In this document: positions 7,991-63,389 of the stretch, one piece after another | How the letters are laid out: each line of letters begins with the position of its first letter | How positions within the stretch are numbered: position 1 is the first letter of the stretch | Assembly: GCA_951406725.2 (NCBI GenBank) | Contig: OX597818.1 | Location: forward strand, 92,256,001 to 92,320,000 | Length of the DNA stretch: 64,000 nt | From: Octopus vulgaris | Lineage: Eukaryota | Reading direction: 5' to 3' | Made by a program: the position numbers and the translations under genes | The notes under the pieces: model-generated | The model's database searches: none | What the model saw: the letters and a program-made list of their open reading frames with translations, nothing else | What the model was told of the DNA's origin: nothing

Positions 7991-9103
7991 CAGGCCCTTT
8001 CGGAACATTCACGATGTGAATTTTCCGAGTCCTCTCCCCATCACCACCCCTTTCGCGAGCGCGCAATGTTTTCGTCATATTCGTTTAGAGCAAGTTGTTT
8101 TACACCTATTACACAATTTTCTTTTTTTTTTTTTTTGTTCCCAGGTCAGACCCTTAGGCCCTTTCGGAACATTCACGATGGGAATTTTCCGAGTCCTCTC
8201 CCCATCACCACTCCTTTCGCGAGCGCGCAATGTTTTTGTCATATTCGTTTAGAGCAAGTTGTTTTACACCTATTACACAATTTTCTTTTTTTTTTTTTTT
8301 GTTCCCAGGTCAGACCCTCAGGCCCTTTCGGAACATTCACGATGGGAATTTTCCGAGTCCTCTCCCCATCACCACCCCTTTCGCGAGCGCGCAATGTTTT
8401 TTGTCATATTCGTTTAGAGCAAGTTGTTTTACACCTATTACACAATTTTCTTTTTTTTTGTTCCCAGGTCAGACCCTCAGGCCCTTTCGGAACATTCACG
8501 ATGGGAATTTTCCGAGTCCTCTCCCCATCACCACCCCTTTCGCGCGCGCGCAATGTTTTTGTCATATTCGTTTAGAGCAAGTTGTTTTACACCTATTACA
8601 CAATTTTCTTTTTTTTTTTTGTTCCCAGGTCAGACCCTCAGGCCCTTTCGGAACATTCACGATGGGAATTTTCCGAGTCCTCTCCCCATCACCACCCCTT
8701 TCGCGAGCGCGCAATGTTTTTTGTCATATTCGTTTAGAGCAAGTTGTTTTACACCTATTACACAATTTTCTTTTTTTTTTTTGTTCCCAGGTCAGACCCT
8801 CAGGCCCTTTCGGAACATTCACGATGGGAATTTTCCGAGTCCTCTCCCCATCACCACCCCTTTCGCGAGCGCGCAATGTTTTTTGTCATATTCGTTTAGA
8901 GCAAGTTGTTTTACACCTATTACACAATTTTCTTTTTTTTTTTTTGTTCCCAGGTCAGACCCTCAGGCCCTTTCGGAACATTCACGATGGGAATTTTCCG
9001 AGTCCTCTCCCCATCACCACCCCTTTCGCGAGCGCGCAATGTTTTTGTCATATTCGTTTAGAGCAAGTTGTTTTACACCTATTACACTATTTTTTTTTTT
9101 TTT
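7991..9103. repeat. ~162-bp satellite, about 7 near-identical copies
   Basis: Unit starts at 7991, 8155, 8319, 8478, 8639, 8801 and 8964; differences are mainly poly-T length. Confidence 0.95.

Positions 9104-19702: not shown

Positions 19703-19705
<3 letters not shown>
18565..19705. mobile_element. Direct repeats of ~280 bp (18580-18855 and 19430-19705) around a pyrimidine-rich spacer; Penelope pLTR-like
   Basis: Near-identical attcgtgtaacatcgtccg...gttcttgtcccattttg copies, each ending in (TA)n. Confidence 0.6.
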
Positions 19706-19744
<39 letters not shown>

Positions 19745-19946
19745 GCAATAATAATTCTCTAAAAGGGATATAGACAGTAACTGCTCGATAACATAAGGGA
19801 CTAAAGCCATCTGAATATGGCTAGGGACAGGGCAGGGTGGTGGGGGTGTTACTGTTGCATTTAGCCCCAGGCGAACATCGACGTCACCAGAAAGGCTCGA
19901 CACCGTCACGGTGCCCTAAACCTGCAAAGGGAGGTAATTCCCCGAT

Positions 19947-20020
19947 GAAGCGGAAACCACACACGGACCATGGTTTCAAGGTGTATTGCCTATCATCGGC
20001 GTGTGGTAGGCCTCCGCTTC
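19947..20020 (-). ncRNA. Type I hammerhead ribozyme, minus strand; further copies at 20307-20380, 20667-20740, 21027-21100 and 21386-21459
   Basis: Reverse complement of the 21721-21794 motif in each 360-bp unit. Confidence 0.75.
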
Positions 20021-21720
20021 CTCGACGAATTCTCCCTCTGCAGGATTTTCTTATATAGATTTTCAAGCAAAATACATTTGCTGATTTCGAAAATCTGTTC
20101 GAAAGCAATAATAATTCTCTAAAAGGGATATAGACAGTAACTGCTCGATAACATAAGGGACTAAAGCCATCTGAATATGGCTAGGGACAGGGCAGGGTGG
20201 TGGGGGTGTTACTGTTGCATTTAGCCCCAGGCGAACATCGACGTCACCAGAAAGGCTCGACACCGTCACGGTGCCCTAAACCTGCAAAGGGAGGTAATTC
20301 CCCGATGAAGCGGAAACCACACACGGACCATGGTTTCAAGGTGTATTGCCTATCATCGGCGTGTGGTAGGCCTCCGCTTCCTCGACGAATTCTCCCTCTG
20401 CAGGATTTTCTTATATAGATTTTCAAGCAAAATACATTTGCTGATTTCGAAAATCTGTTCGAAAGCAATAATAATTCTCTAAAAGGGATATAGACAGTAA
20501 CTGCTCGATAACATAAGGGACTAAAGCCATCTGAATATGGCTAGGGACAGGGCAGGGTGGTGGGGGTGTTACTGTTGCATTTAGCCCCAGGCGAACATCG
20601 ACGTCACCAGAAAGGCTCGACACCGTCACGGTGCCCTAAACCTGCAAAGGGAGGTAATTCCCCGATGAAGCGGAAACCACACACGGACCATGGTTTCAAG
20701 GTGTATTGCCTATCATCGGCGTGTGGTAGGCCTCCGCTTCCTCGACGAATTCTCCCTCTGCAGGATTTTCTTATATAGATTTTCAAGCAAAATACATTTG
20801 CTGATTTCGAAAATCTGTTCGAAAGCAATAATAATTCTCTAAAAGGGATATAGACAGTAACTGCTCGATAACATAAGGGACTAAAGCCATCTGAATATGG
20901 CTAGGGACAGGGCAGGGTGGTGGGGGTGTTACTGTTGCATTTAGCCCCAGGCGAACATCGACGTCACCAGAAAGGCTCGACACCGTCACGGTGCCCTAAA
21001 CCTGCAAAGGGAGGTAATTCCCCGATGAAGCGGAAACCACACACGGACCATGGTTTCAAGGTGTATTGCCTATCATCGGCGTGTGGTAGGCCTCCGCTTC
21101 CTCGACGAATTCTCCTCTGCAGGATTTTCTTATATAGATTTTCAAGCAAAATACATTTGCTGATTTCGAAAATCTGTTCGAAAGCAATAATAATTCTCTA
21201 AAAGGGATATAGACAGTAACTGCTCGATAACATAAGGGACTAAAGCCATCTGAATATGGCTAGGGACAGGGCAGGGTGGTGGGGGTGTTACTGTTGCATT
21301 TAGCCCCAGGCGAACATCGACGTCACCAGAAAGGCTCGACACCGTCACGGTGCCCTAAACCTGCAAAGGGAGGTAATTCCCCGATGAAGCGGAAACCACA
21401 CACGGACCATGGTTTCAAGGTGTATTGCCTATCATCGGCGTGTGGTAGGCCTCCGCTTCCTCGACGAATTCTCCCTCTGCAGGATTTTCTTATATAGATT
21501 TTCAAGCAAAATACATTTGCTGATTTCGAAAATCTGTTCGAAAGCAATAATAATTCTCTAAAAGGGATATAGACAGTAACTGCTCGATAACATAAGGGAC
21601 TAACTGTCTATATCCCTTTTAGAGAATTATTATTGCTTTCGAACAGATTTTCGAAATCAGCAAATGTATTTTGCTTGAAAATCTATATAAGAAAATCCTG
21701 CAGAGGGAGAATTCGTCGAG

Positions 21721-21794
21721 GAAGCGGAGGCCTACCACACGCCGATGATAGGCAATACACCTTGAAACCATGGTCCGTGTGTGGTTTCCGCTTC
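21721..21794 (+). ncRNA. Type I hammerhead ribozyme (core variant CCGAUGA, GUC site); further + copies at 22080-22153 and 22440-22513
   Basis: accacacg CCGATGA taggcaatacacctt GAAA c catg g TC cgtgtgtggt; distal stem I gaagcgga/tccgcttc; predicted cleavage after 21775. Confidence 0.75.
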
Positions 21795-22668
21795 ATCGGG
21801 GAATTACCTCCTTTGCAGGTTTAGGGCACCGTGACGGTGTCGAGCCTTTCTGGTGACGTCGATGTTCGCCTGGGGCTAAATGCAACAGTAACACCCCCAC
21901 CACCCTGCCCTGTCCCTAGCCATATTCAGATGGCTTTAGTCCCTTATGTTATCGAGCAGTTACTGTCTATATCCCTTTTAGAGAATTATTATTGCTTTCG
22001 AACAGATTTTCGAAATCAGCAAATGTATTTTGCTTGAAAATCTATATAAGAAAATCCTGCAGAGGGAGAATTCGTCGAGGAAGCGGAGGCCTACCACACG
22101 CCGATGATAGGCAATACACCTTGAAACCATGGTCCGTGTGTGGTTTCCGCTTCATCGGGGAATTACCTCCCTTTGCAGGTTTAGGGCACCGTGACGGTGT
22201 CGAGCCTTTCTGGTGACGTCGATGTTCGCCTGGGGCTAAATGCAACAGTAACACCCCCACCACCCTGCCCTGTCCCTAGCCATATTCAGATGGCTTTAGT
22301 CCCTTATGTTATCGAGCAGTTACTGTCTATATCCCTTTTAGAGAATTATTATTGCTTTCGAACAGATTTTCGAAATCAGCAAATGTATTTTGCTTGAAAA
22401 TCTATATAAGAAAATCCTGCAGAGGGAGAATTCGTCGAGGAAGCGGAGGCCTACCACACGCCGATGATAGGCAATACACCTTGAAACCATGGTCCGTGTG
22501 TGGTTTCCGCTTCATCGGGGAATTACCTCCCTTTGCAGGTTTAGGGCACCGTGACGGTGTCGAGCCTTTCTGGTGACGTCGATGTTCGCCTGGGGCTAAA
22601 TGCAACAGTAACACCCCCACCACCCTGCCCTGTCCCTAGCCATATTCAGATGGCTTTAGTCCCTTATG

Positions 22669-22752
<84 letters not shown>

Positions 22753-38460: not shown

Positions 38461-40429
38461 ATATCTATGGGCTGTAAAAAAGAAGTCAACAGAAGTATAT
38501 TTAGTAAATGAAACACTCATATAAAATTTACTAATCTTATATCGAATTCCATACTTGTATAACTTATTATAAATACCCTGCAAGTAGAAGAAAAGGATAG
38601 TAAATTGAAAAAAAAAACATAGTCGTAGGATTAAAACGAATAAGGATTTAACTAGATTGTTAAATGTAACACAAAATTAAATTATATAGGAATGGTAAAC
38701 TATATCAATGATAAAACTCACTACTTTTCTTGATTATAAATTGCTATGTCTTCTTACCTGTTATTAGTATGTGGGGAAAGAACATATTTTTAATCAACGC
38801 TACACGTGTTTCTGCGCTGGTGGTGTGTTTATGTAAGATGTAGTTCTCTATATATAATCGAGAATCCCAGAGTAAGAATAATAGTGTACTTAGGAAAGAC
38901 ATTAGTACCACATCATTAAATTATAGACTTTGAATTCTCTAGTTTTGGTGTTAATAACCAAAACATTTTTCAATTACTAATTTCCTTATTAGAATATATT
39001 TATCTGTTTCTTTAGTTATCACCTCTACAGTACCTCAACAGAAATTACAGTAAACCTTATGTAACACTTTTTAGCCGAAATAAAACTTTGAATATATATA
39101 TTTAATAGGCTCGTGTACACTTAAATGCGAAAAGACATATGTCGCAGTAGCTGTTTTGGAAGAGAAATTCTTATTAAAAAATGCTTGTCAAATGCTTTGG
39201 TAGGGTTTTGAATGACGTCATCGAACTGTAGGACAGATGTTTCTGTGCCGTACTCTTCATCAGCTACAGATGCCGAGTCCATTGTTGATTACCCATTAAG
39301 AACAGCTGTTATATGCATACAGCAAAAATTAATTAGAGGCACACCAAGCAGTAATGTTTGAAACAATACAGCATATTTAAGCGGCTCGTGTATACTCAAG
39401 ACCTTCACAATGTACTTGTTTCGGAAGAGAAATTCTCTTTGTAGACAAGATATCTGAACACACACGGAGCTGGACTACGACTGAGGTCAAATGTTTTTCT
39501 GTCACTATGCTTCATCACTTACACAAACCGAACCGATCGGTCATATCCTCTAGGATATTATATTCGTATATGCAAATAGTAATATTAATTTTTAGTTGAA
39601 TTAGATTTCAGAGGTGTATCTCCCTATATTTGCTAACAAAAACAAAACAAATGGTTTGAGGAATCATTCCAAACCACTAGTTATTCTCCAAAATACAAAA
39701 CCCCATAGTCAATTAAGATTTTAAAGATGCTCCCCGTGGCTTCTTAGGAGTTATCATTAATGTCAATTATTTTCCTTTAATGTGTATAACAAATTCTTTT
39801 TTTTCCTTGTTACATTGAAAATGTCAGCCTCTACACAACTATAACTTCATATAATTCCACAGTTAGCAGTGTGCTGTCATTCGGCTGATATAACAACGAG
39901 CTGCTATGACATTACATTATTCTTGTAATATAATTATGTAATGCCTCAGATAACATTGCCTTATACAGCGGATAATACGACTTGAGTAGCATTACATCGT
40001 CACTAAGCGGATATGATAATTCTCCTTCAGTATTATGGTACAAATACTTAGATATGTTTAAAATAATACCCTTGACGTGAACCAAGTAACATTATATTGT
40101 TCTTTGGACAGCATATTTAACTTTGAAAAGGCCACTTGTATAACATTATACCTACTTCTAAAAATGTACTAGGTTAGCACCATATTCACCCCGCTTATGT
40201 GTTGTAATCTAACGTCGAACTGTTATAACTTTCACCCCGGTATAGCAGTACTCTTAGTTAGACAAGTAAAGATACGACTATCTATGACCGACTTCGCCGA
40301 CTTCTCAACCACGCAACTTCCTAGGTCACAGTATTTGTAACGACCATCACATACCGCTCGTCACGTAGGAGGGGTGTTCCATTATTATTATTGTTAACCC
40401 CATAACTTCAGCTAGTATTCCTGGATGTA

Positions 40430-41180
40430 TTAATAACACACACCAAGTATGGATTCAGGACATCCATATAGCGGAAGCCGACCTTCACTGGACAATACTT
40501 TAACTTCAATTCCCACCATCCATACAGTGTAAAGAAAGGGATTGCTCAATGCCTAAAACATCAAGCAAAGAATTTAAGTAGCGATCGTGATACCCACCAC
40601 AAAGAATTGATCAAACTTAGTAACAGGCGCAAGTGTGGCTGTGTGGTAAGTAGCTTGTTTACCAACCACATGGTTCCGGGTTCAGTCCCACTGCGTGGCA
40701 CCTTGGGCAAGTGTCTTCTACTATAGCCTCGGGCCAGCCAGAGCCTTGTGAGTGGATTTGGTAGACGGAAACTGAAAGAAGCCCGTCGTATATATGTATA
40801 TATATGTGTGCGTGTATGTTTGTGTTTGTCCCCCTAGCATTGCTTGACAACCGATGCTGGTGTGTTTATGTCCCCGTCACTTAGCGGTTCGGCAAAAGAG
40901 ACCGATAGAAAAAGTACTAGGCTTACAAAGAATAAGTCCCTGGGTCGAGTTGCTCTATTAAAGGCGGTGCTCCAGCATGGCCGCAGTCAAATGACTGAAA
41001 CAAGTAAAAGAGTAAAGAGAGTAAAGAGTAACAATGCATTAAGCAACAACTATCCCCAAAACATGCTACCCATTCCAATTATGAAGAAAAGAGAGGATGA
41101 AACCAATAAATTGTCCACAGTCTGTCTACCATATGTGAAAGGCCTCTCCGAAAAGATACAAAATATATGCGGCCCAATAT
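40430..41180 (+). pseudogene. Penelope-like RT C-terminal/linker fragment, interrupted by a SINE
   Basis: RKPTFTGQYFNFNSHHPYSVKKG ... NNYP ... CLPYVKGLSEKI; SINE 40625-41030 with agtaaca target duplication. Confidence 0.8.
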
Positions 41181-52960: not shown

Positions 52961-54498
52961 GTTTCAAACAAGTATGTTGTTGAAAATGACTTCTTCGAAG
53001 TTTCGGCCAGCTAAATCATCGTCGGACTGTCCGACGATGGATTAACCGGCCGGAATTTCGAAGTGACGCTCAACAACATTCAGGTTTAAGAATAAACTTC
53101 TGGTCCACAAAAGTAAACATTAATTCCCAAATTAATTATTTTTATTATAACTAAACATTAAAACACACATAAAAAACTTAATACACAAACACACACACTC
53201 CCAAGGGAAAGATCGTTTTCGTTTGCTGTGACCGCTTCCCGTAAATATAATGAGGTTAGTGGTTTTTGTGGCTTTCGGAGTTAAGTTCAACTCTTATTTT
53301 TAGCAATCGCTGGGCTTCTTTCTGTTTCTGTCTACCAAATTTACTTTCTTTGGTCAGCCCGTGACGATAGCAGAAGACTTATCATGGAACCATATAGTTG
53401 GGAGGCAAACTTCTTACCACTCATTCAGCCCAGTACGTACACATATTTCGCACATATTAAAAATGTTCGCGGGCAAAGATGCCGTGTAAAATGTAATCTC
53501 GAAAGAATTAAAAATCTACTTTTAAAATTTTTTACTGATTAAGACTTATACAGAAAGTAAAAGGAAATAAATGAATATTCTACTTACCAACATTGGCAGG
53601 TCTCTCTGAAATTTGAGGAATTTTAATTGTTAGGAAATGCGTTTCAATATTCAAGTTCTATTGTTTTAGTCATATTAAATTAAGGAAATTCAAAATTAAT
53701 TAGTTGATATAAATCAGTGAAAAAGAATAAGTCAATTACATCGACCCTGGCGCTCAAATGGAACTTATTTTTGTCGACCCCAGAGACAAAGTTCACCTCA
53801 TCAGAATTTGAATTCAGAACATAAAGACGGGTAAAATGCCACTAAGCATATTACCCGGCACAGTAACGATTCTGCCAGCTCACTACTTAAGTTTCAAATT
53901 TTGATACAAGGCCAGGAATTTTGGAGAGCGGGTAAATCTATTGCATCAACCCCATACTCTACTGTTACTTGCTTTATCTACCCTGGAAGGATGGAATGTG
54001 AAGACGATCCCAGCGAATTGATGATAACAAAAGGCACAAGGCCTGGAATTAAGGGGAGGGCGGATAGTCAATTGCACCGAGTCCAGTACGAAACTGGTAC
54101 TTGTTTTATCGACCCCAAAATAAGGAAAGGCAAAGTCGAACTCGGCAGCATTTGAACTCAGAACGTAAAGAACGAAATGCCGCTAAGCATTATACCCGAC
54201 GTGCTAAAGATTCTACCAGCTCATCGCCTGAGGTTTCAAATTTTGGTACAAGGCCAGCAATTTTAGGGAAGTGTGTTAGCCGATTACATCAACCCTAGTA
54301 ATCTGCTCTTACTTAGTTTATCGACCCCGGAAGGATGAAAGAAAAAATCGACCTCGGCGAATTCGTAATAATAATTATTATTTCGAATTTTGCCACAGGG
54401 AGCTTGAGGGAGGTGGAGTCGAGTCGATTACATCGACCCCAGTGTTCAAGTGATACTTATTTTAATCGACCCCAAACGGATGAAAGGTAAAGTCGACA

Positions 54499-56356
54499 TC
54501 GCTTTACTGAAGTCAAGGTATATGACGTCAGAGTTCGAACCTGTTCCCAAGGCTTTGAGTACATCTTCAATGTGGTGTAAGAGCTGTGTTAGACAGTCCC
54601 TGCCACAGCGAAAGCCATGTTGATTTGAATTTAGGAGTTTGTGGGTCTCCAGGAAGTCAGCTATCCTTGATCTTAACACTCTTTCAAACACTTTAATGAT
54701 GTGGGAGGTGAGTGAGATTGGGCGATAGTTGACTGCGAGGGATCTGTTTCCCTGTTTGAAAACCGGGATGACCGACTGGGATAGAAACTTATTCGGTATA
54801 TAACCTGCGTCTAATGAGTTTCTCCAGAGGTTGGTCAGAGGGACTGCCAGTTGATATCTACATTCCTTCAGGAGACTGGCGGGAAATCTATCAGGGCCTA
54901 CAGCGGAGTAATGTTTGACCTCATTTATTGCTGCTACGATGTCGGTGGCAGTGAAGGTTATGTCTGCGATTTTGTGTTGGGAGTCAGCTTCGTTCGTTTC
55001 CCTCACATCAATATCAGTGGGAACACTGAAGACAGAGCAATATTGTTTCTGCAGTATTTCTGCCATTTCTTTAGCATCGTGTTGGGGAATGCCGTTTTCA
55101 TCAATCAATGGCCCAATAGGTGAGACAGTGGTTCTATGCTTATTTGCATAAGAATAGAACACTTTTGGGTTCTGTTTGATGTTTTTGATTACCCATTGTT
55201 CCTCCACAGCTCTTTGATTTTCAATGGAGGTTTTCATGTTAGTCTGCAGATGAAGTTTTTCCAGCTCTAGTCTTTTCATTGTTGTTGAATGTGGATGTTG
55301 CGTGTGGGAATATTTTAATTGGTTGATTTTTTTGTTGAGTCTTTTGATGCGCCTGATGAGTGTTTTTTTCTTTTTAGGGAGCCGGTTTCTGTTTGTGTTA
55401 GTAGATTTCTTGGGAGCGTGTTTAGAGCATGTGTCGGTGACAATGGTTTCAAAGTGCTGCCACGCGGTCTCAATATGAGGGGAATTGAGAGTAAAAGACC
55501 AGTCGATGGAAGACAGATCCTTTCTGATTGTTCCCCAGTCCGCTTTGTGGAAATTTATGTTGTCAAATGGGTGCCATGGAGTGGGATTGGCTGGTTTGGT
55601 TTTTATACGTCGGGAATTAAGATTGCAGAGTACCATGTCGTGGTCTGAGAGGAGAGTTTTTTCGACTGAAATGCTGTGAACGTAGCTAGAGTGATTGGTC
55701 AGTACCAGATCCAAGATCGTTTTATTCTGTCTCGTTGGTTCAAGCACTAGCTGAGTCAGGAAATACTCATCCATCAGATTAAAGAGCAGTTCTGCTGCTG
55801 CCCTATCTGATGTAGAGCACTTGCCTAACTTCGGAGTATTTGTGGGCCAGTTCACATGAGGGAGGTTAAAATCACCCATCACTATTATGTTTCCGGAGTG
55901 GTACTTCCGAAGGAAGGACTTGACTTTGCTAAGGCACTCTTCAAAGTACTTTAGAGGTGCCTGGGGAGGCCTGTAAAGACCAACAATGGTTATGTCCTTG
56001 GCTTTGTTGTATACTGATACCGATTCACAGTAGCCATTGGAAAATGTGTCCTTGGCATCAAGTGAAAAGGAGTCATGGATAAAGATGGCTGTCCCTCCCT
56101 TATTTCGGTCTGTGCGATCTGCACGAACAATGGTGAAATCTTTTATTTTCACCTCTGCGTCCATATGGGTGTTGTTCAGGTGAGTCTCGGTAAGGATAAA
56201 GAAAGGGAAGCAATGTGCCATTTCGGCAAGCCAACTCTCTATATATGGGATCTTCCATTTTTGGGCAATAATTGATGGGTTGATGCCACGTACATTTAAC
56301 AGGAATGTCGAGGTAAGGGAAGTTGGTAATGGGTGAGTGGTCCTTGTGATTTGCAT
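54499..56356 (-). CDS. LINE ORF2 (APE endonuclease plus N-terminal part of RT), CR1/L2-type, 3'-truncated
   Basis: LNVRG, LTETHL, GGT, YRPP, MGDFN, LDLVL, SDH (APE); GPD, NYRPISLTS, QHGFR, DVIYLDFSKA (RT); then breaks into SINE sequence. Confidence 0.92.
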
Positions 56357-57567
56357 AGATGGTTGGTGATGGCTCGCTGGATCTCCTGGCTTAGGTCGGC
56401 CTTCATATTTTCCAGGTATGTCAGTAAAAAAGAGTTACTTGTTTGGTTTGCCACTTGGTCAGAGGATACATATTTCAAGTTGGCGTTATTTGGTGTTTTT
56501 TCCTGGTTCTGTCTACGTAGTTTGATTGTAGGAGGGGAAACGTGGTTGTATTTTGTTCTTGTTGTTGTCCTAGATTTCCTCTGTTCCTGTTCATATCTAT
56601 TCTGTGATCGTTTTGTGCCCTTCAGATGGTGGTTGTTGCATTCTGGGTTCAGGCACATCCTTTGTGAGACAGAAGTTTGGCACAGTTTAGGATGGAATAA
56701 GGTGCATCTATTGCCTCTTATGCATCCGTATTTAGGGTCAGAACCATAGATTCTGTATTTAGGACAGTATTTGGGGTGGAGGTGGGGGCAATTTTTTCCT
56801 GTTATACCGTATGGACAGGTGCCCATAGCAAGTCTACGACATAAGGTCGGGTGGGGAAAAGCACAGCGTCCATTTTTGTTTGTGCCGCTGGGGCCAAATC
56901 TACAAGTGTCTTTAGAATAGTAACGGCAGGGGGTTTTATTTGGTTGTAGTAGTGGTTTTTCTATTTTGGCAGTAGTAGTAGTGGTGGTGGTGGTGGTGGT
57001 GTTAGAAGCAGCTTGTTGATTTTGTGATGGTGGGTTCTGGCTTGCCAGTATGTGGTCAAATCTGCAGCTGCCTTGAGAGTAGTAGTGGCAGATGGTTTTA
57101 CGCGGATGTAGTAGTGGTTTTCCTATTGTGGCAGTAGTGGGGAGTTGTAGCAGCATTGGAACTTGACTAGTGGTAGTATTAGAGTGTTGTTGTTGTTGTT
57201 TTTGTTGCTGTAGCGAAGGTGAGACTTGACTTGGTTCATCAGGTGCTGTTGTCAATGGAAGTAGGTCAGTTGATTGTTGCTGTTGAAGTGACCACTGACC
57301 TGTTGGGATTTGGTCATTTGTTGTACTGGATTCGTTGGCAAGAATGGCTTTTAGTGTAGCCATGTGCGCGTGAAAAATAGGGAATATCCTAACAATTTCT
57401 TTTAATTTATTTTCTATCTGTTTTACAGATCTGTGAAAGGATTTTTTCGTTAAATCCTCAGTTATTTTGCTATAAACATTAGCTTCGTTGTGATGGATGA
57501 ACCAAGCGTTAATCATTGCAGTAATTTTATTTTCAACCCAGCGGCGTTTTTGAAAATTATTGGCCAT
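56296..57567 (-). CDS. LINE ORF1 with repeated CCCH-type zinc fingers and Q/T-rich linkers
   Basis: Open frame from MANNFQ; motifs CRYYSKDTCRFG...CAFPHP, CRRLAMGTCPYG...CPHLHP, CPKY...C...CTLFHP, CQTS...C...CNNHH; overlaps ORF2 by 61 nt. Confidence 0.8.
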   Translation of the reverse strand: MANNFQKRRWVENKITAMINAWFIHHNEANVYSKITEDLTKKSFHRSVKQIENKLKEIVRIFPIFHAHMATLKAILANESSTTNDQIPTGQWSLQQQQSTDLLPLTTAPDEPSQVSPSLQQQKQQQQHSNTTTSQVPMLLQLPTTATIGKPLLHPRKTICHYYSQGSCRFDHILASQNPPSQNQQAASNTTTTTTTTTTAKIEKPLLQPNKTPCRYYSKDTCRFGPSGTNKNGRCAFPHPTLCRRLAMGTCPYGITGKNCPHLHPKYCPKYRIYGSDPKYGCIRGNRCTLFHPKLCQTSVSQRMCLNPECNNHHLKGTKRSQNRYEQEQRKSRTTTRTKYNHVSPPTIKLRRQNQEKTPNNANLKYVSSDQVANQTSNSFLLTYLENMKADLSQEIQRAITNHLCKSQGPLTHYQLPLPRHSC

Positions 57568-58489
57568 ATTCAGTGGGGTAGTGTTGTCTAATATATATAT
57601 GTATGTATGTGTATGCGTGTGTATGTATGTGTACACCAGTTATTGATGGCTTGATGTAAAATAGTGAACACACTGTTGAAAAGTTTGTGTCGATATACTC
57701 GGTAAATAGTGAATACACCGTTGGAAAGTTTGTGTCGATATACTCGGAAATTCGTGGCTTGTGTGTGTGAGAGTTCAGTGTAATTAGTACAATCTAATTT
57801 AATTAGTACAATCGGGATGAGCGGTGTGTTTGATACAGACCAAGAAAAAAGAATTGTACTCACGGGACTAGTTTTAGAACTAGTCTTGGGTTTAGTATTT
57901 AGTTTTGGGTTGTTCCTCTTTCTTCAGGTTGTATATAGATTTGTATAAATTTATCCTCCGATGGTAGTAAAAGAGTAGTATAGTAGGATTGTAGAGTTCA
58001 AAAGTCTTGAGATTAAAGACAAGGAGAGATTATGTTAGCTTGAGTTGAGTTGAGTTGAGTTAAATTGAGTTGAAAAATGCTTCTTTGGTTAGTTACTGAC
58101 GGGAGCTATAGAAAGTACGTCTTGTCACGACGACTGCCTGACTGGCTACTATATATATATATATACATACACATCTATGCATACACAGTACATATTCACA
58201 AAAACCCATACAGACACCCACAGATACACTCAGACATGCACACACAAGGAGACAGCGGTAAACACACACACACACACACATGCAAACACACATAAAAACA
58301 CACAAACACCAATACACAAACACACAAACACATGAATATGCAAAATACATACATACAAACATAAACACATACATGAATACCTACATACATAGCGCCCACA
58401 CACACACATTCATACATGTATACACACACTTACATGCATGCATGCTTACATACATACATACATACATACGTACATACATACATACATAC

Positions 58490-61940: not shown

Positions 61941-62570
61941 AGCATCAACTTGGCCCACACGAAATGCATAAACACGTAGGTATAATGCAGAGTTGGCATC
62001 AATTTTTCTTGCGAATCTACAAGCTTCCTTGACAACAGAATATAATTGTTTTCTTGTTCGTACACAAGTCGCAGCATATAGACCTCTGCACTGCATAAAT
62101 ACATGTTCATTCCTATAGTGGAGTTTCCATAGCATAACAATCCTTTTCCTTCAGTACTTTTATGTTGGTAAAAACCGTCAACGTCTGCCTAAAGGCAGTG
62201 AATGTTAGAGATCAATCATTTTCTTGTCTTCTTGCCCTTGCGTTGGAGTCCCAGAGGCGAGCAATTAATGATATCGAACTGTACTCGACAACTGGATTTG
62301 ACTACGTATGTTCTAATATGTTTAAACAGTAATATACTTTTTTTAAACAGTAATATACTTTTTAAACAGTAATATACTCTTTTGAAAGCGTTTTATCGAA
62401 CGTTTTAAGTATATTAAGAAATTTAATAGTAATTCACTTTAGCAGATAATGACTTTATTTGGAGGAAAATATTAAATAATTTCCTTTGAGCGACTATAGA
62501 TAAACCAAAAAATGTATATCTTAATAGCTTCAAAACTTATATATACATCATTCTTCTCTATTTTTTTCAG

Positions 62571-62585
62571 TTCGTCCTTCACATG
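62571..62585 (+). CDS. 15-nt microexon copy 1 (xRPSH)
   Basis: ttttttttcag|TTCGTCCTTCACATG|gtatgt, phase 1-1. Confidence 0.6.
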
Positions 62586-62872
62586 GTATGTAACTATTTA
62601 AATATTTCCAATTGCATTTTCCAGTTTAAAACAGTCATTTTCTAGTTTAAAACATTAAGTTGAGGTCTTAAGTCACATTATTGAATTCATAAGATGCTGT
62701 GTATATATTTTCAGATTGATTTGATTGTAATTCACTTTAGCAGTTAATAATTTTATTTGGAGGAAAATATTAAATTATTTCCTTTGAACGACTATAGATA
62801 AACCAAAAAAATGTATATCATAATAGCTTCAGAATTTATATGTACATCATTCTTCTCTATTTTCTTTTTCAG

Positions 62873-62887
62873 TTCGTCCTTCACAAG
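62873..62887 (+). CDS. 15-nt microexon copy 2 (VRPSQ)
   Basis: ctttttcag|TTCGTCCTTCACAAG|gtatgt, phase 1-1. Confidence 0.6.
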
Positions 62888-63168
62888 GTATGTAACTATT
62901 TCCAATTGCATTTTCCAGTTTAAAACAGTCATTTTCTAGTTTAAAACATTAATTTGAAGTCTTAATTCACATTATTGAATTCATAAGATACTGTGTATAT
63001 ACTTTCAGATTGATTTGATAGTAATTCACTTTAGCAGTTAATAATTTTATTTGGAGGAAAATATTAAATTATTTCCTTTGAATGAATATAGATAAACCAA
63101 AAAAATGTATATCATAATAGCTTCAGAATTTATATGTACATCATTCTTCTCTATTTTTTGGGTTTTAG

Positions 63169-63183
63169 TTCGTCCTTCAAAGG
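63169..63183 (+). CDS. 15-nt microexon copy 3 (VRPSK)
   Basis: ggttttag|TTCGTCCTTCAAAGG|gtatgt, phase 1-1. Confidence 0.55.
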
Positions 63184-63389
63184 GTATGTAACTATTTATA
63201 TATTTCCAATGGATTTTTCTCGTTTAAATCAGTTATTTTCTAGTTTAAAACATTAATTTTAGATTTTAATTCATATTATTGAATTCATAAGATGCTGTGT
63301 ATATATTTTCAGATTGATTTTATTATATTAACAATCTGAAAATATGGATAACTAATAATATAACATAAACACAAAAGATCATACACGTA

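Follow-up and report, generated by a model that had tools for sequence, protein, structure and literature searches.

How a tandem array of ribozyme-bearing units comes to lie head-to-head with an inverted copy of itself is the question raised by a 2.9-kb array in the genome of Octopus vulgaris, whose two arms of 360-bp units stand within (TA)n. It is located in a stretch of 64,000 nucleotides of contig OX597818.1 (positions 92,256,001 to 92,320,000 of the forward strand), the whole of which was analysed and is referred to here as the window. A first-pass annotation, made from the letters alone, had described the array as a fold-back satellite. Here, we show that the head-to-head layout is the usual product of insertion in a dispersed family. 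We think it probable that the array represents one two-armed insertion of a young non-coding hammerhead retrozyme, mobilised by a Penelope-like element (PLE) and copied from a 360-nt RNA circle. Its classification as a PLE-mobilised retrozyme and its origin in a single event are very likely; the putative passage through a 360-nt circle is the weak step of the explanation.

The near-identical 360-bp units in (TA)n were recovered by TRF at period 360, and a sequence scan reproduced the five minus-strand cores followed by three plus-strand cores that had been annotated, with the first plus-strand GUC ending at 21775 (Table 1). Positions within the unit are given as phases, phase 1 being the first base 3' of the predicted GUC cut (window 22135). 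The left and right arms are mutual reverse complements, 100% identical over 863 nt, and the pairing of the inverted arms spans only 19788 to 22672, leaving unpaired a 44-nt tail, which sits between the two inferred start sites of reverse transcription. At the opposite end, the final 2-4 bases of the right arm are likely target TA. The unit is without LTR-type structure and without an ORF, its longest stop-free run being 98 codons, and a coding function was dropped on this ground. A role as miRNA precursor was likewise discarded because matches fell far below gathering scores, and so was host regulation via dsRNA, which would be possible only given read-through from a flank.

Table 1. Features of the two-armed array and of its target tracts, in positions of the 64-kb window
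Feature	Position	Strand	Details
Left (TA)n target tract	19703..19743	.	TRF row 19703-19744
Left arm, 5.2 units	19744..21603	-	Ribozyme-sense minus; TRF (5.2 copies, 99%) and end mapping; ends at phases 222 (outer, long start site) and 162 (inner)
44-nt tail	19744..19787	-	Phases 179-222, left arm end only
Type I hammerhead motif	19947..20020	-	Predicted cut after C 19966; sequence scan and descriptor
Type I hammerhead motif	20307..20380	-	Predicted cut after C 20326; sequence scan and descriptor
Type I hammerhead motif	20667..20740	-	Predicted cut after C 20686; sequence scan and descriptor
Type I hammerhead motif	21027..21100	-	Predicted cut after C 21046; sequence scan and descriptor
Type I hammerhead motif	21386..21459	-	Predicted cut after C 21405; sequence scan and descriptor
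Head-to-head junction	21578..21603	.	25 unmirrored bases, 1-nt overlap at 21603, phases 162/188
Right arm, 3.0 units	21603..22672	+	Ribozyme-sense plus; TRF (3.0 copies, 99%) and end mapping; ends at phases 188 (inner) and 178 (outer, short start site)
Type I hammerhead motif	21721..21794	+	Predicted cut after C 21775; sequence scan and descriptor
Type I hammerhead motif	22080..22153	+	Predicted cut after C 22134; sequence scan and descriptor
Predicted 360-nt monomer, cut to cut	22135..22494	+	Predicted highly self-paired
Type I hammerhead motif	22440..22513	+	Predicted cut after C 22494; sequence scan and descriptor
Right (TA)n target tract	22673..22750	.	TRF; TRF row 22670-22750

A structural descriptor that required stem I, stem II, and a palindromic stem III found exactly eight motifs in the 64-kb window and none in each of 10 shuffles. 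The eight are identical, and all site-spanning units (8/8) contain one. Each is composed of a long stem I interrupted by an internal loop, the core CCGAUGA, a 3-bp stem II, GAAA, and an 8-nt palindromic stem III. The assignment of one type I hammerhead to each unit thus stands as far as the overall shape recognised by the descriptor is concerned; as to its details, core position 4 holds a C, against a U in the Rfam consensus (U4C), and a U.U mismatch opens stem II. In the covariance-model check, neither the array region nor the single motif gave a hammerhead match in Rfam, only hairpin or microsatellite noise, and four older copies of the family gave no hammerhead match there either. The U4C change was reported to lower hammerhead activity considerably in vitro while still allowing viroid infectivity (PMC3088659). 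The axolotl hammerhead HHR_Amex2, whose stem II has a basal U.U like that of the 360-bp unit, is described as giving 22% monomer cleavage and cleaving better as a dimer (PMC7229834), and among Xenopus retrozyme dimers 8/9 were reported without cleavage (bioRxiv 10.64898/2026.07.22.740005). For the octopus unit, an intermolecular stem III duplex is predicted at -11.2 kcal/mol, in line with the annotated view of a young retrozyme-type family with a hammerhead suited to dimeric cleavage. The predicted monomer fold is one without a formed core (stem II probability 0.08, stem III 0), and the unit is strongly self-paired, with a fold z of -5.6 for the permuted linear unit and -5.9 when folded as a circle. 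Two loci (L036 and L227) carry, in single units, a 2-nt insertion right after the predicted cut, at phase 1, which might reflect dinucleotide slippage or a ligation scar.

A genome-wide count places the array in a dispersed young family: the 34-nt core has 817 exact matches in the genome, against none for its reversed control, and copies are 97-100% identical over the unit among the matches listed. We mapped 52 loci, comprising the window, 39 from a DNA search, and a further 12, which complete contig C1 and include two from C2; since the first 40 were picked as the best-scoring of 647 candidates, they are skewed to long, intact copies. Two arms were present at 37 of the 52 loci and a single arm at the other 15. 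All 37 two-armed loci are head-to-head with RNA 3' ends outward, so that the term fold-back satellite gives way to that of an ordinary insertion product of the family. At 35 of these 37 loci, a short outer end at phase ~178 is paired with a long one at phase ~222, ~45 nt apart. Short-short pairs do not occur among the 37, the only long-long pair has a second arm of 34 nt, and one locus is degraded. The short start really lies at phase ~174-176, because arrays with a phase-177 variant still end in a target-like base. In none of the 35 short-long loci does an outer end coincide with the ribozyme cut. Almost every family locus has a TA-rich flank at its outer end, and the same transition from phase 222 to TA is found in contigs from other public runs (X1, X15, X19). 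Inner ends are scattered across phases; the median arm measures 2.15 units and the longest 14.7. Few long, locally homogenised arrays with arbitrary ends are the hallmark of a satellite, whereas the family consists of many short dispersed arrays with fixed ends. Target site duplications (TSDs), which in dispersed metazoan retrozymes are longer than 4 bp, measured ~10-12 bp here and were present at 3/9 loci checked, namely those where both ends lie at non-TA sites (L050-L052).

These paired ends bear on the idea that the array grew where it lies, one unit having been inserted, expanded by unequal crossing-over, and inverted on site through fold-back or repair. Local duplication does occur after insertion, as periodic variants at one locus (L035) indicate, and the junction at 21603 lies 26 nt from symmetry, within a post hoc excess of junctions less than 45 nt away (16/37 vs 9.25 expected, p 0.012). 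However, junction offsets over the 37 loci are overall not distinguishable from uniform (KS p 0.09), and local growth cannot yield one orientation at 37/37 loci, nor a short and a long end at 35/37. We consider this account improbable and largely refuted. The palindromic fold-back junction of the first-pass annotation also finds no counterpart, phase 162 of one arm meeting phase 188 of the other with 1 nt shared, and junctions within 15 nt of symmetry number 4/37, where 3.1 are expected. Self-priming fold-back as the origin of the junctions is overall unsupported, given offsets near uniform; an overlap of 1-8 nt was found at 21/33 clean junctions.

Fixed ends and recurrence also speak to whether the inversion might be a long-read or assembly chimera. 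No contig of four public runs bridges the 21603 junction, and a missing contig proves nothing. A read fold-back would mirror its own flank, whereas here the flanks are unlike each other and one end exceeds the other by a constant tail; the same pattern recurs at 37 loci, in the sister family C described below, and in an ORF-bearing PLE family. We therefore take the annotated inversion to be real and regard a chimera as barely credible.

If the array arose in a single event, its two arms should have a common source, and this is what the haplotypes suggest. The arms share a family-level haplotype at 24/26 loci, against an expectation of 5.3 +/- 1.7 and a maximum of 12 in 10,000 re-pairings. Two of the 24 concordant loci had only 1-2 informative sites; the two non-sharing loci are an alignment-gap case and a 1-of-2 tie. 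By inspection, 10 later two-armed loci contain no discordant arm. Haplotypes are nested and fill whole arrays (L217, L062). At L217, with arms of 14.7 and 8.4 units, four variants are present in every covered unit, bar a target-derived terminal base and one ambiguous gap, and variants confined to one locus among those sampled fill all covered units there (8/8 at L214, 4/4 at L216, 3/3 at L058). Because both nested haplotypes and single-locus variants fill whole arrays, a one-unit bottleneck followed by re-amplification is indicated, a combination that rolling-circle reverse transcription would simply yield. Among the longest arrays, two on C2 (L061 and L062, 57.27-57.30 Mb) lie 20 kb apart and have similar left flanks and different haplotypes, which suggests independent insertions into a duplicated target.

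The same twin-priming by a PLE might also have acted on a linear multimer, uncut or partly cut and derived from a homogeneous source array, with no circle involved. We hold this to be unlikely, though it draws on several observations. In the PAc system, the hammerhead was described as protein-assisted and dispensable in vitro, with unprocessed RNA as the main substrate (PMC11167929), and in the octopus unit the U4C core and its failure to form in the predicted monomer fold would fit an RNA that is seldom cut. Several haplotypes are common to many loci, as a few source arrays would give, and four loci hold mosaic arrays (L035, L040, L061, L213), for which a single monomer circle would be insufficient without later recombination. 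Five arm ends lie one base inside the cut, compared with two at one control position, a weak hint of cut linear 5' ends: inner ends fall at phase 2 in 3/89 sampled cases, a count that two other phases also reach, and true truncations among genome-wide pattern matches were 5/15 at phase 2, 1/4 at phase 1, and 2/5 at the one control position, in a post hoc comparison. Against a linear template, 5'-truncated copying only shortens arrays, yet arms reach 14.7 units; nested new mutations fixed in every unit of both arms need a one-unit bottleneck; and the hammerhead motif is maintained by compensatory change in three families. A circular template thus remains our preferred reading. In 4/4 public runs, of uncertain run type, contigs were found in which the unit closes on itself; we do not take such self-closing 360-nt contigs as evidence of a circle, since tandem DNA also produces them. 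Among the runs carrying the unit, none is recorded as RNA and 14, from 5 studies, were guessed to be RNA.

Two sister families in the same genome shed light on the significance of the ribozyme motif. Family C is ~78% identical to the young family, with 147 matches of a 27-nt tag in the genome, and its insertions end at the same two sites as those of the young family. Its motif has U3-A8 in place of C3-G8, a covariation known in hammerheads (PMC4209133), together with a 4-bp stem II of other sequence and another palindrome, and matches Rfam Hammerhead_HH9 at E 3e-5, below gathering score. Family S is older (3012 candidates) and combines the canonical core with a third set of stems; its motif matches Hammerhead_1 in Rfam at E 5.4 only. 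Because these homologous families keep the fold by compensatory changes, the sequences provide evidence that the hammerhead fold is under selection, and the core covariation across genomic copies to which the first-pass annotation had looked is present between families. In the young family, the CC core is probably the derived state. A conserved region common to the three non-autonomous families covers both start sites and holds a hairpin and a stem; its predicted pairing is compensatory in 3/18 pairs, with a covariation term of only -0.1, and judged from its sequence it is a candidate protein-binding element.

Older copies at four loci (L229, L236, L237, L239) have UU at core positions 3-4 with G8 and are in this respect intermediate between family C and the young family. 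One two-armed insertion of family C harbours, inside its TA flank, a small two-armed insertion of the young family (L205:1473-2004), whose arms reach phases 222 and 178 though each is shorter than half a unit.

The architecture of these insertions closely recalls that of PLEs. Insertions of endonuclease (EN)-containing PLEs are described as a tandem plus an inverted 5'-truncated copy, head-to-head, with a tail of 30-40 bp on one side and a bias to microsatellite or AT-rich targets (PMC8557442; PMC3846280; PMC11167929), all of which has its like in the octopus family. Frangieh 2024 identified the PLE tail as the stretch between two internal start sites of the reverse transcriptase (RT), reported that both DNA strands are cut and extended, and predicted a dimer (PMC11167929). 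EN-containing PLEs are further described as having TSDs of 8-10 bp and a hammerhead upstream of the two internal RT starts, similar to what we find here. Unlike PLEs, the 360-bp family has no ORF, a tail of 44-48 nt, and arms of many identical units. PLEs with an N-terminal EN are said to lack canonical hammerheads (PMC8557442), whereas the hammerhead described here has the canonical type I shape. Unlike in the self-priming model for Adineta PLEs, the junctions are mostly non-palindromic.

Young PLEs, a potential source of the enzyme, are present in the same genome. A GIY-YIG search returned 6136 candidates, of which 150 were scored, and the same intact 781-aa RT and GIY-YIG ORF was found at 16/16 such loci fetched. 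A second PLE family, represented by L117 and also having an RT and GIY-YIG ORF, comprises 1184 candidates and is very young, with 40/40 scored copies identical (100%) over 426 bp. The L117 copy itself (L117:2790-5985) lies head-to-head within (TA)n, its inverted arms matching perfectly over 766 bp and only one of its ends bearing a tail; in this family, all fully seen two-armed copies (4/4) have the head-to-head layout within (TA)n and carry a tail of 30 nt on a single arm, and the 3' end lies at (TA)n in 30/30 sampled copies, the query itself having ended at the TA junction. Its hammerhead has the CC core and the U.U mismatch, as in the 360-bp unit. The cysteine motif of the linker suggests that the PLEs belong to the Neptune or Nematis clades.

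No similarity between PLE pLTRs and the 360-bp unit was found at 50 GIY-YIG loci drawn from the 150 scored among the 6136 candidates, in which respect the unit differs from the sampled PLE loci of this genome; two weak unit matches among these 50 loci fell on adjoining family S copies. The flanks of 39 family loci contained no helper PLE similar to the unit beyond pieces of the sister families. The unit has no autonomous PLE ORF, and PLE protein matches in the family loci searched were located only in the flanks. Non-autonomous PLE derivatives of Chlamys offer a parallel: MRC1 likewise forms multicopy insertions, which are head-to-tail (PMC8557442). Unlike the octopus family, for which no such partner was seen at 50 PLE loci, the Chlamys elements are described as resembling autonomous partners at the 3' end.

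The young PLE family at L100-L116 and L077-L094 contains many intact 781-aa ORFs and a direct pLTR of ~500 bp, together with an overlapping frame upstream that reaches 479 codons; related loci carry a U3-A8 hammerhead variant. A short PLE RT-like fragment in the window (40418-40618) shares 37% identity with the 781-aa protein across 67 aa (E 7e-6).

A probable course of such an insertion can be pieced together. Tandem units would be transcribed, and hammerheads acting as dimers would cut the transcripts slowly, after which ligation would yield monomer circles. An RT-endonuclease dimer of a PLE would then bind the conserved region, which lies 85-225 nt downstream of the cut, and cleave both strands of (TA)n with a stagger of ~10-12 nt. 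One DNA end would prime reverse transcription at the short site (phase ~174-178) and the other at the long site (221-222). Each cDNA would make as many as ~15 turns round the template before the free ends of the two were joined through 0-8 nt of microhomology. Whether a PLE dimer indeed holds one circular ribozyme RNA at sites 45 nt apart, with each subunit priming from one strand of the cut TA tract, both rolling round that circle, and the cDNAs then being linked end to end, we consider evenly balanced. If true, such a symmetric twin-primed rolling circle would explain together the tandem and inverted structures of PLEs and their one-sided tail, and would constitute direct genomic evidence for retrozyme circles as a transposition template.

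Retrozymes, their circles, and their proposed origin from PLEs are already known from the literature, and in giant squid 235 hammerhead loci were counted (PMC6962438). In class and PLE link, both published, the octopus element is thus ordinary. Like metazoan non-LTR retrozymes, it consists of non-coding tandem units, theirs being of 150-450 bp, with one type I hammerhead each (PMC7229834; bioRxiv 10.64898/2026.07.22.740005), and like them it shows a weak palindromic stem III, a self-paired monomer, and PLEs co-occurring in the genome. Two-armed head-to-head insertions, fixed paired ends, and targeting of TA set it apart from metazoan retrozymes as these two papers describe them, and the main text of bioRxiv 10.64898/2026.07.22.740005 makes no mention of a tail, a target site, a mollusc, or a cephalopod. 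A further difference is the U4C core; expression and circles were shown for metazoan retrozymes, while the present family is known from DNA. In the main texts of a mostly open-access literature, we found no description of this family, nor of retrozymes whose short and long ends are strictly paired and whose arms share haplotypes.

The way in which PLEs generate their tandem and inverted insertions, and the status of retrozyme circles as true transposition templates, are both stated as open questions (PMC8557442; PMC11167929; PMC7229834). A very young 360-nt element that encodes no protein, is present in hundreds of copies, and offers two precisely mapped start sites along with haplotype tags provides a small, defined substrate for addressing them, and the family gives rise to countable predictions, namely the pairing of a short with a long end, a single haplotype for each event, and multi-turn copying.

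The window contains further repeats and reading frames. A 162-bp tandem array (7991-9103) has 6.9 copies that are 97% alike, and an AT-rich 294-bp tandem array (62421-63320) has three copies that are 90% alike, with internal 21-bp repeats; the hammerhead descriptor was negative for both. Two stop-free frames that overlap on the minus strand, of 662 and 447 codons (54449-56434 and 56299-57639), show a LINE ORF2/ORF1-like arrangement.
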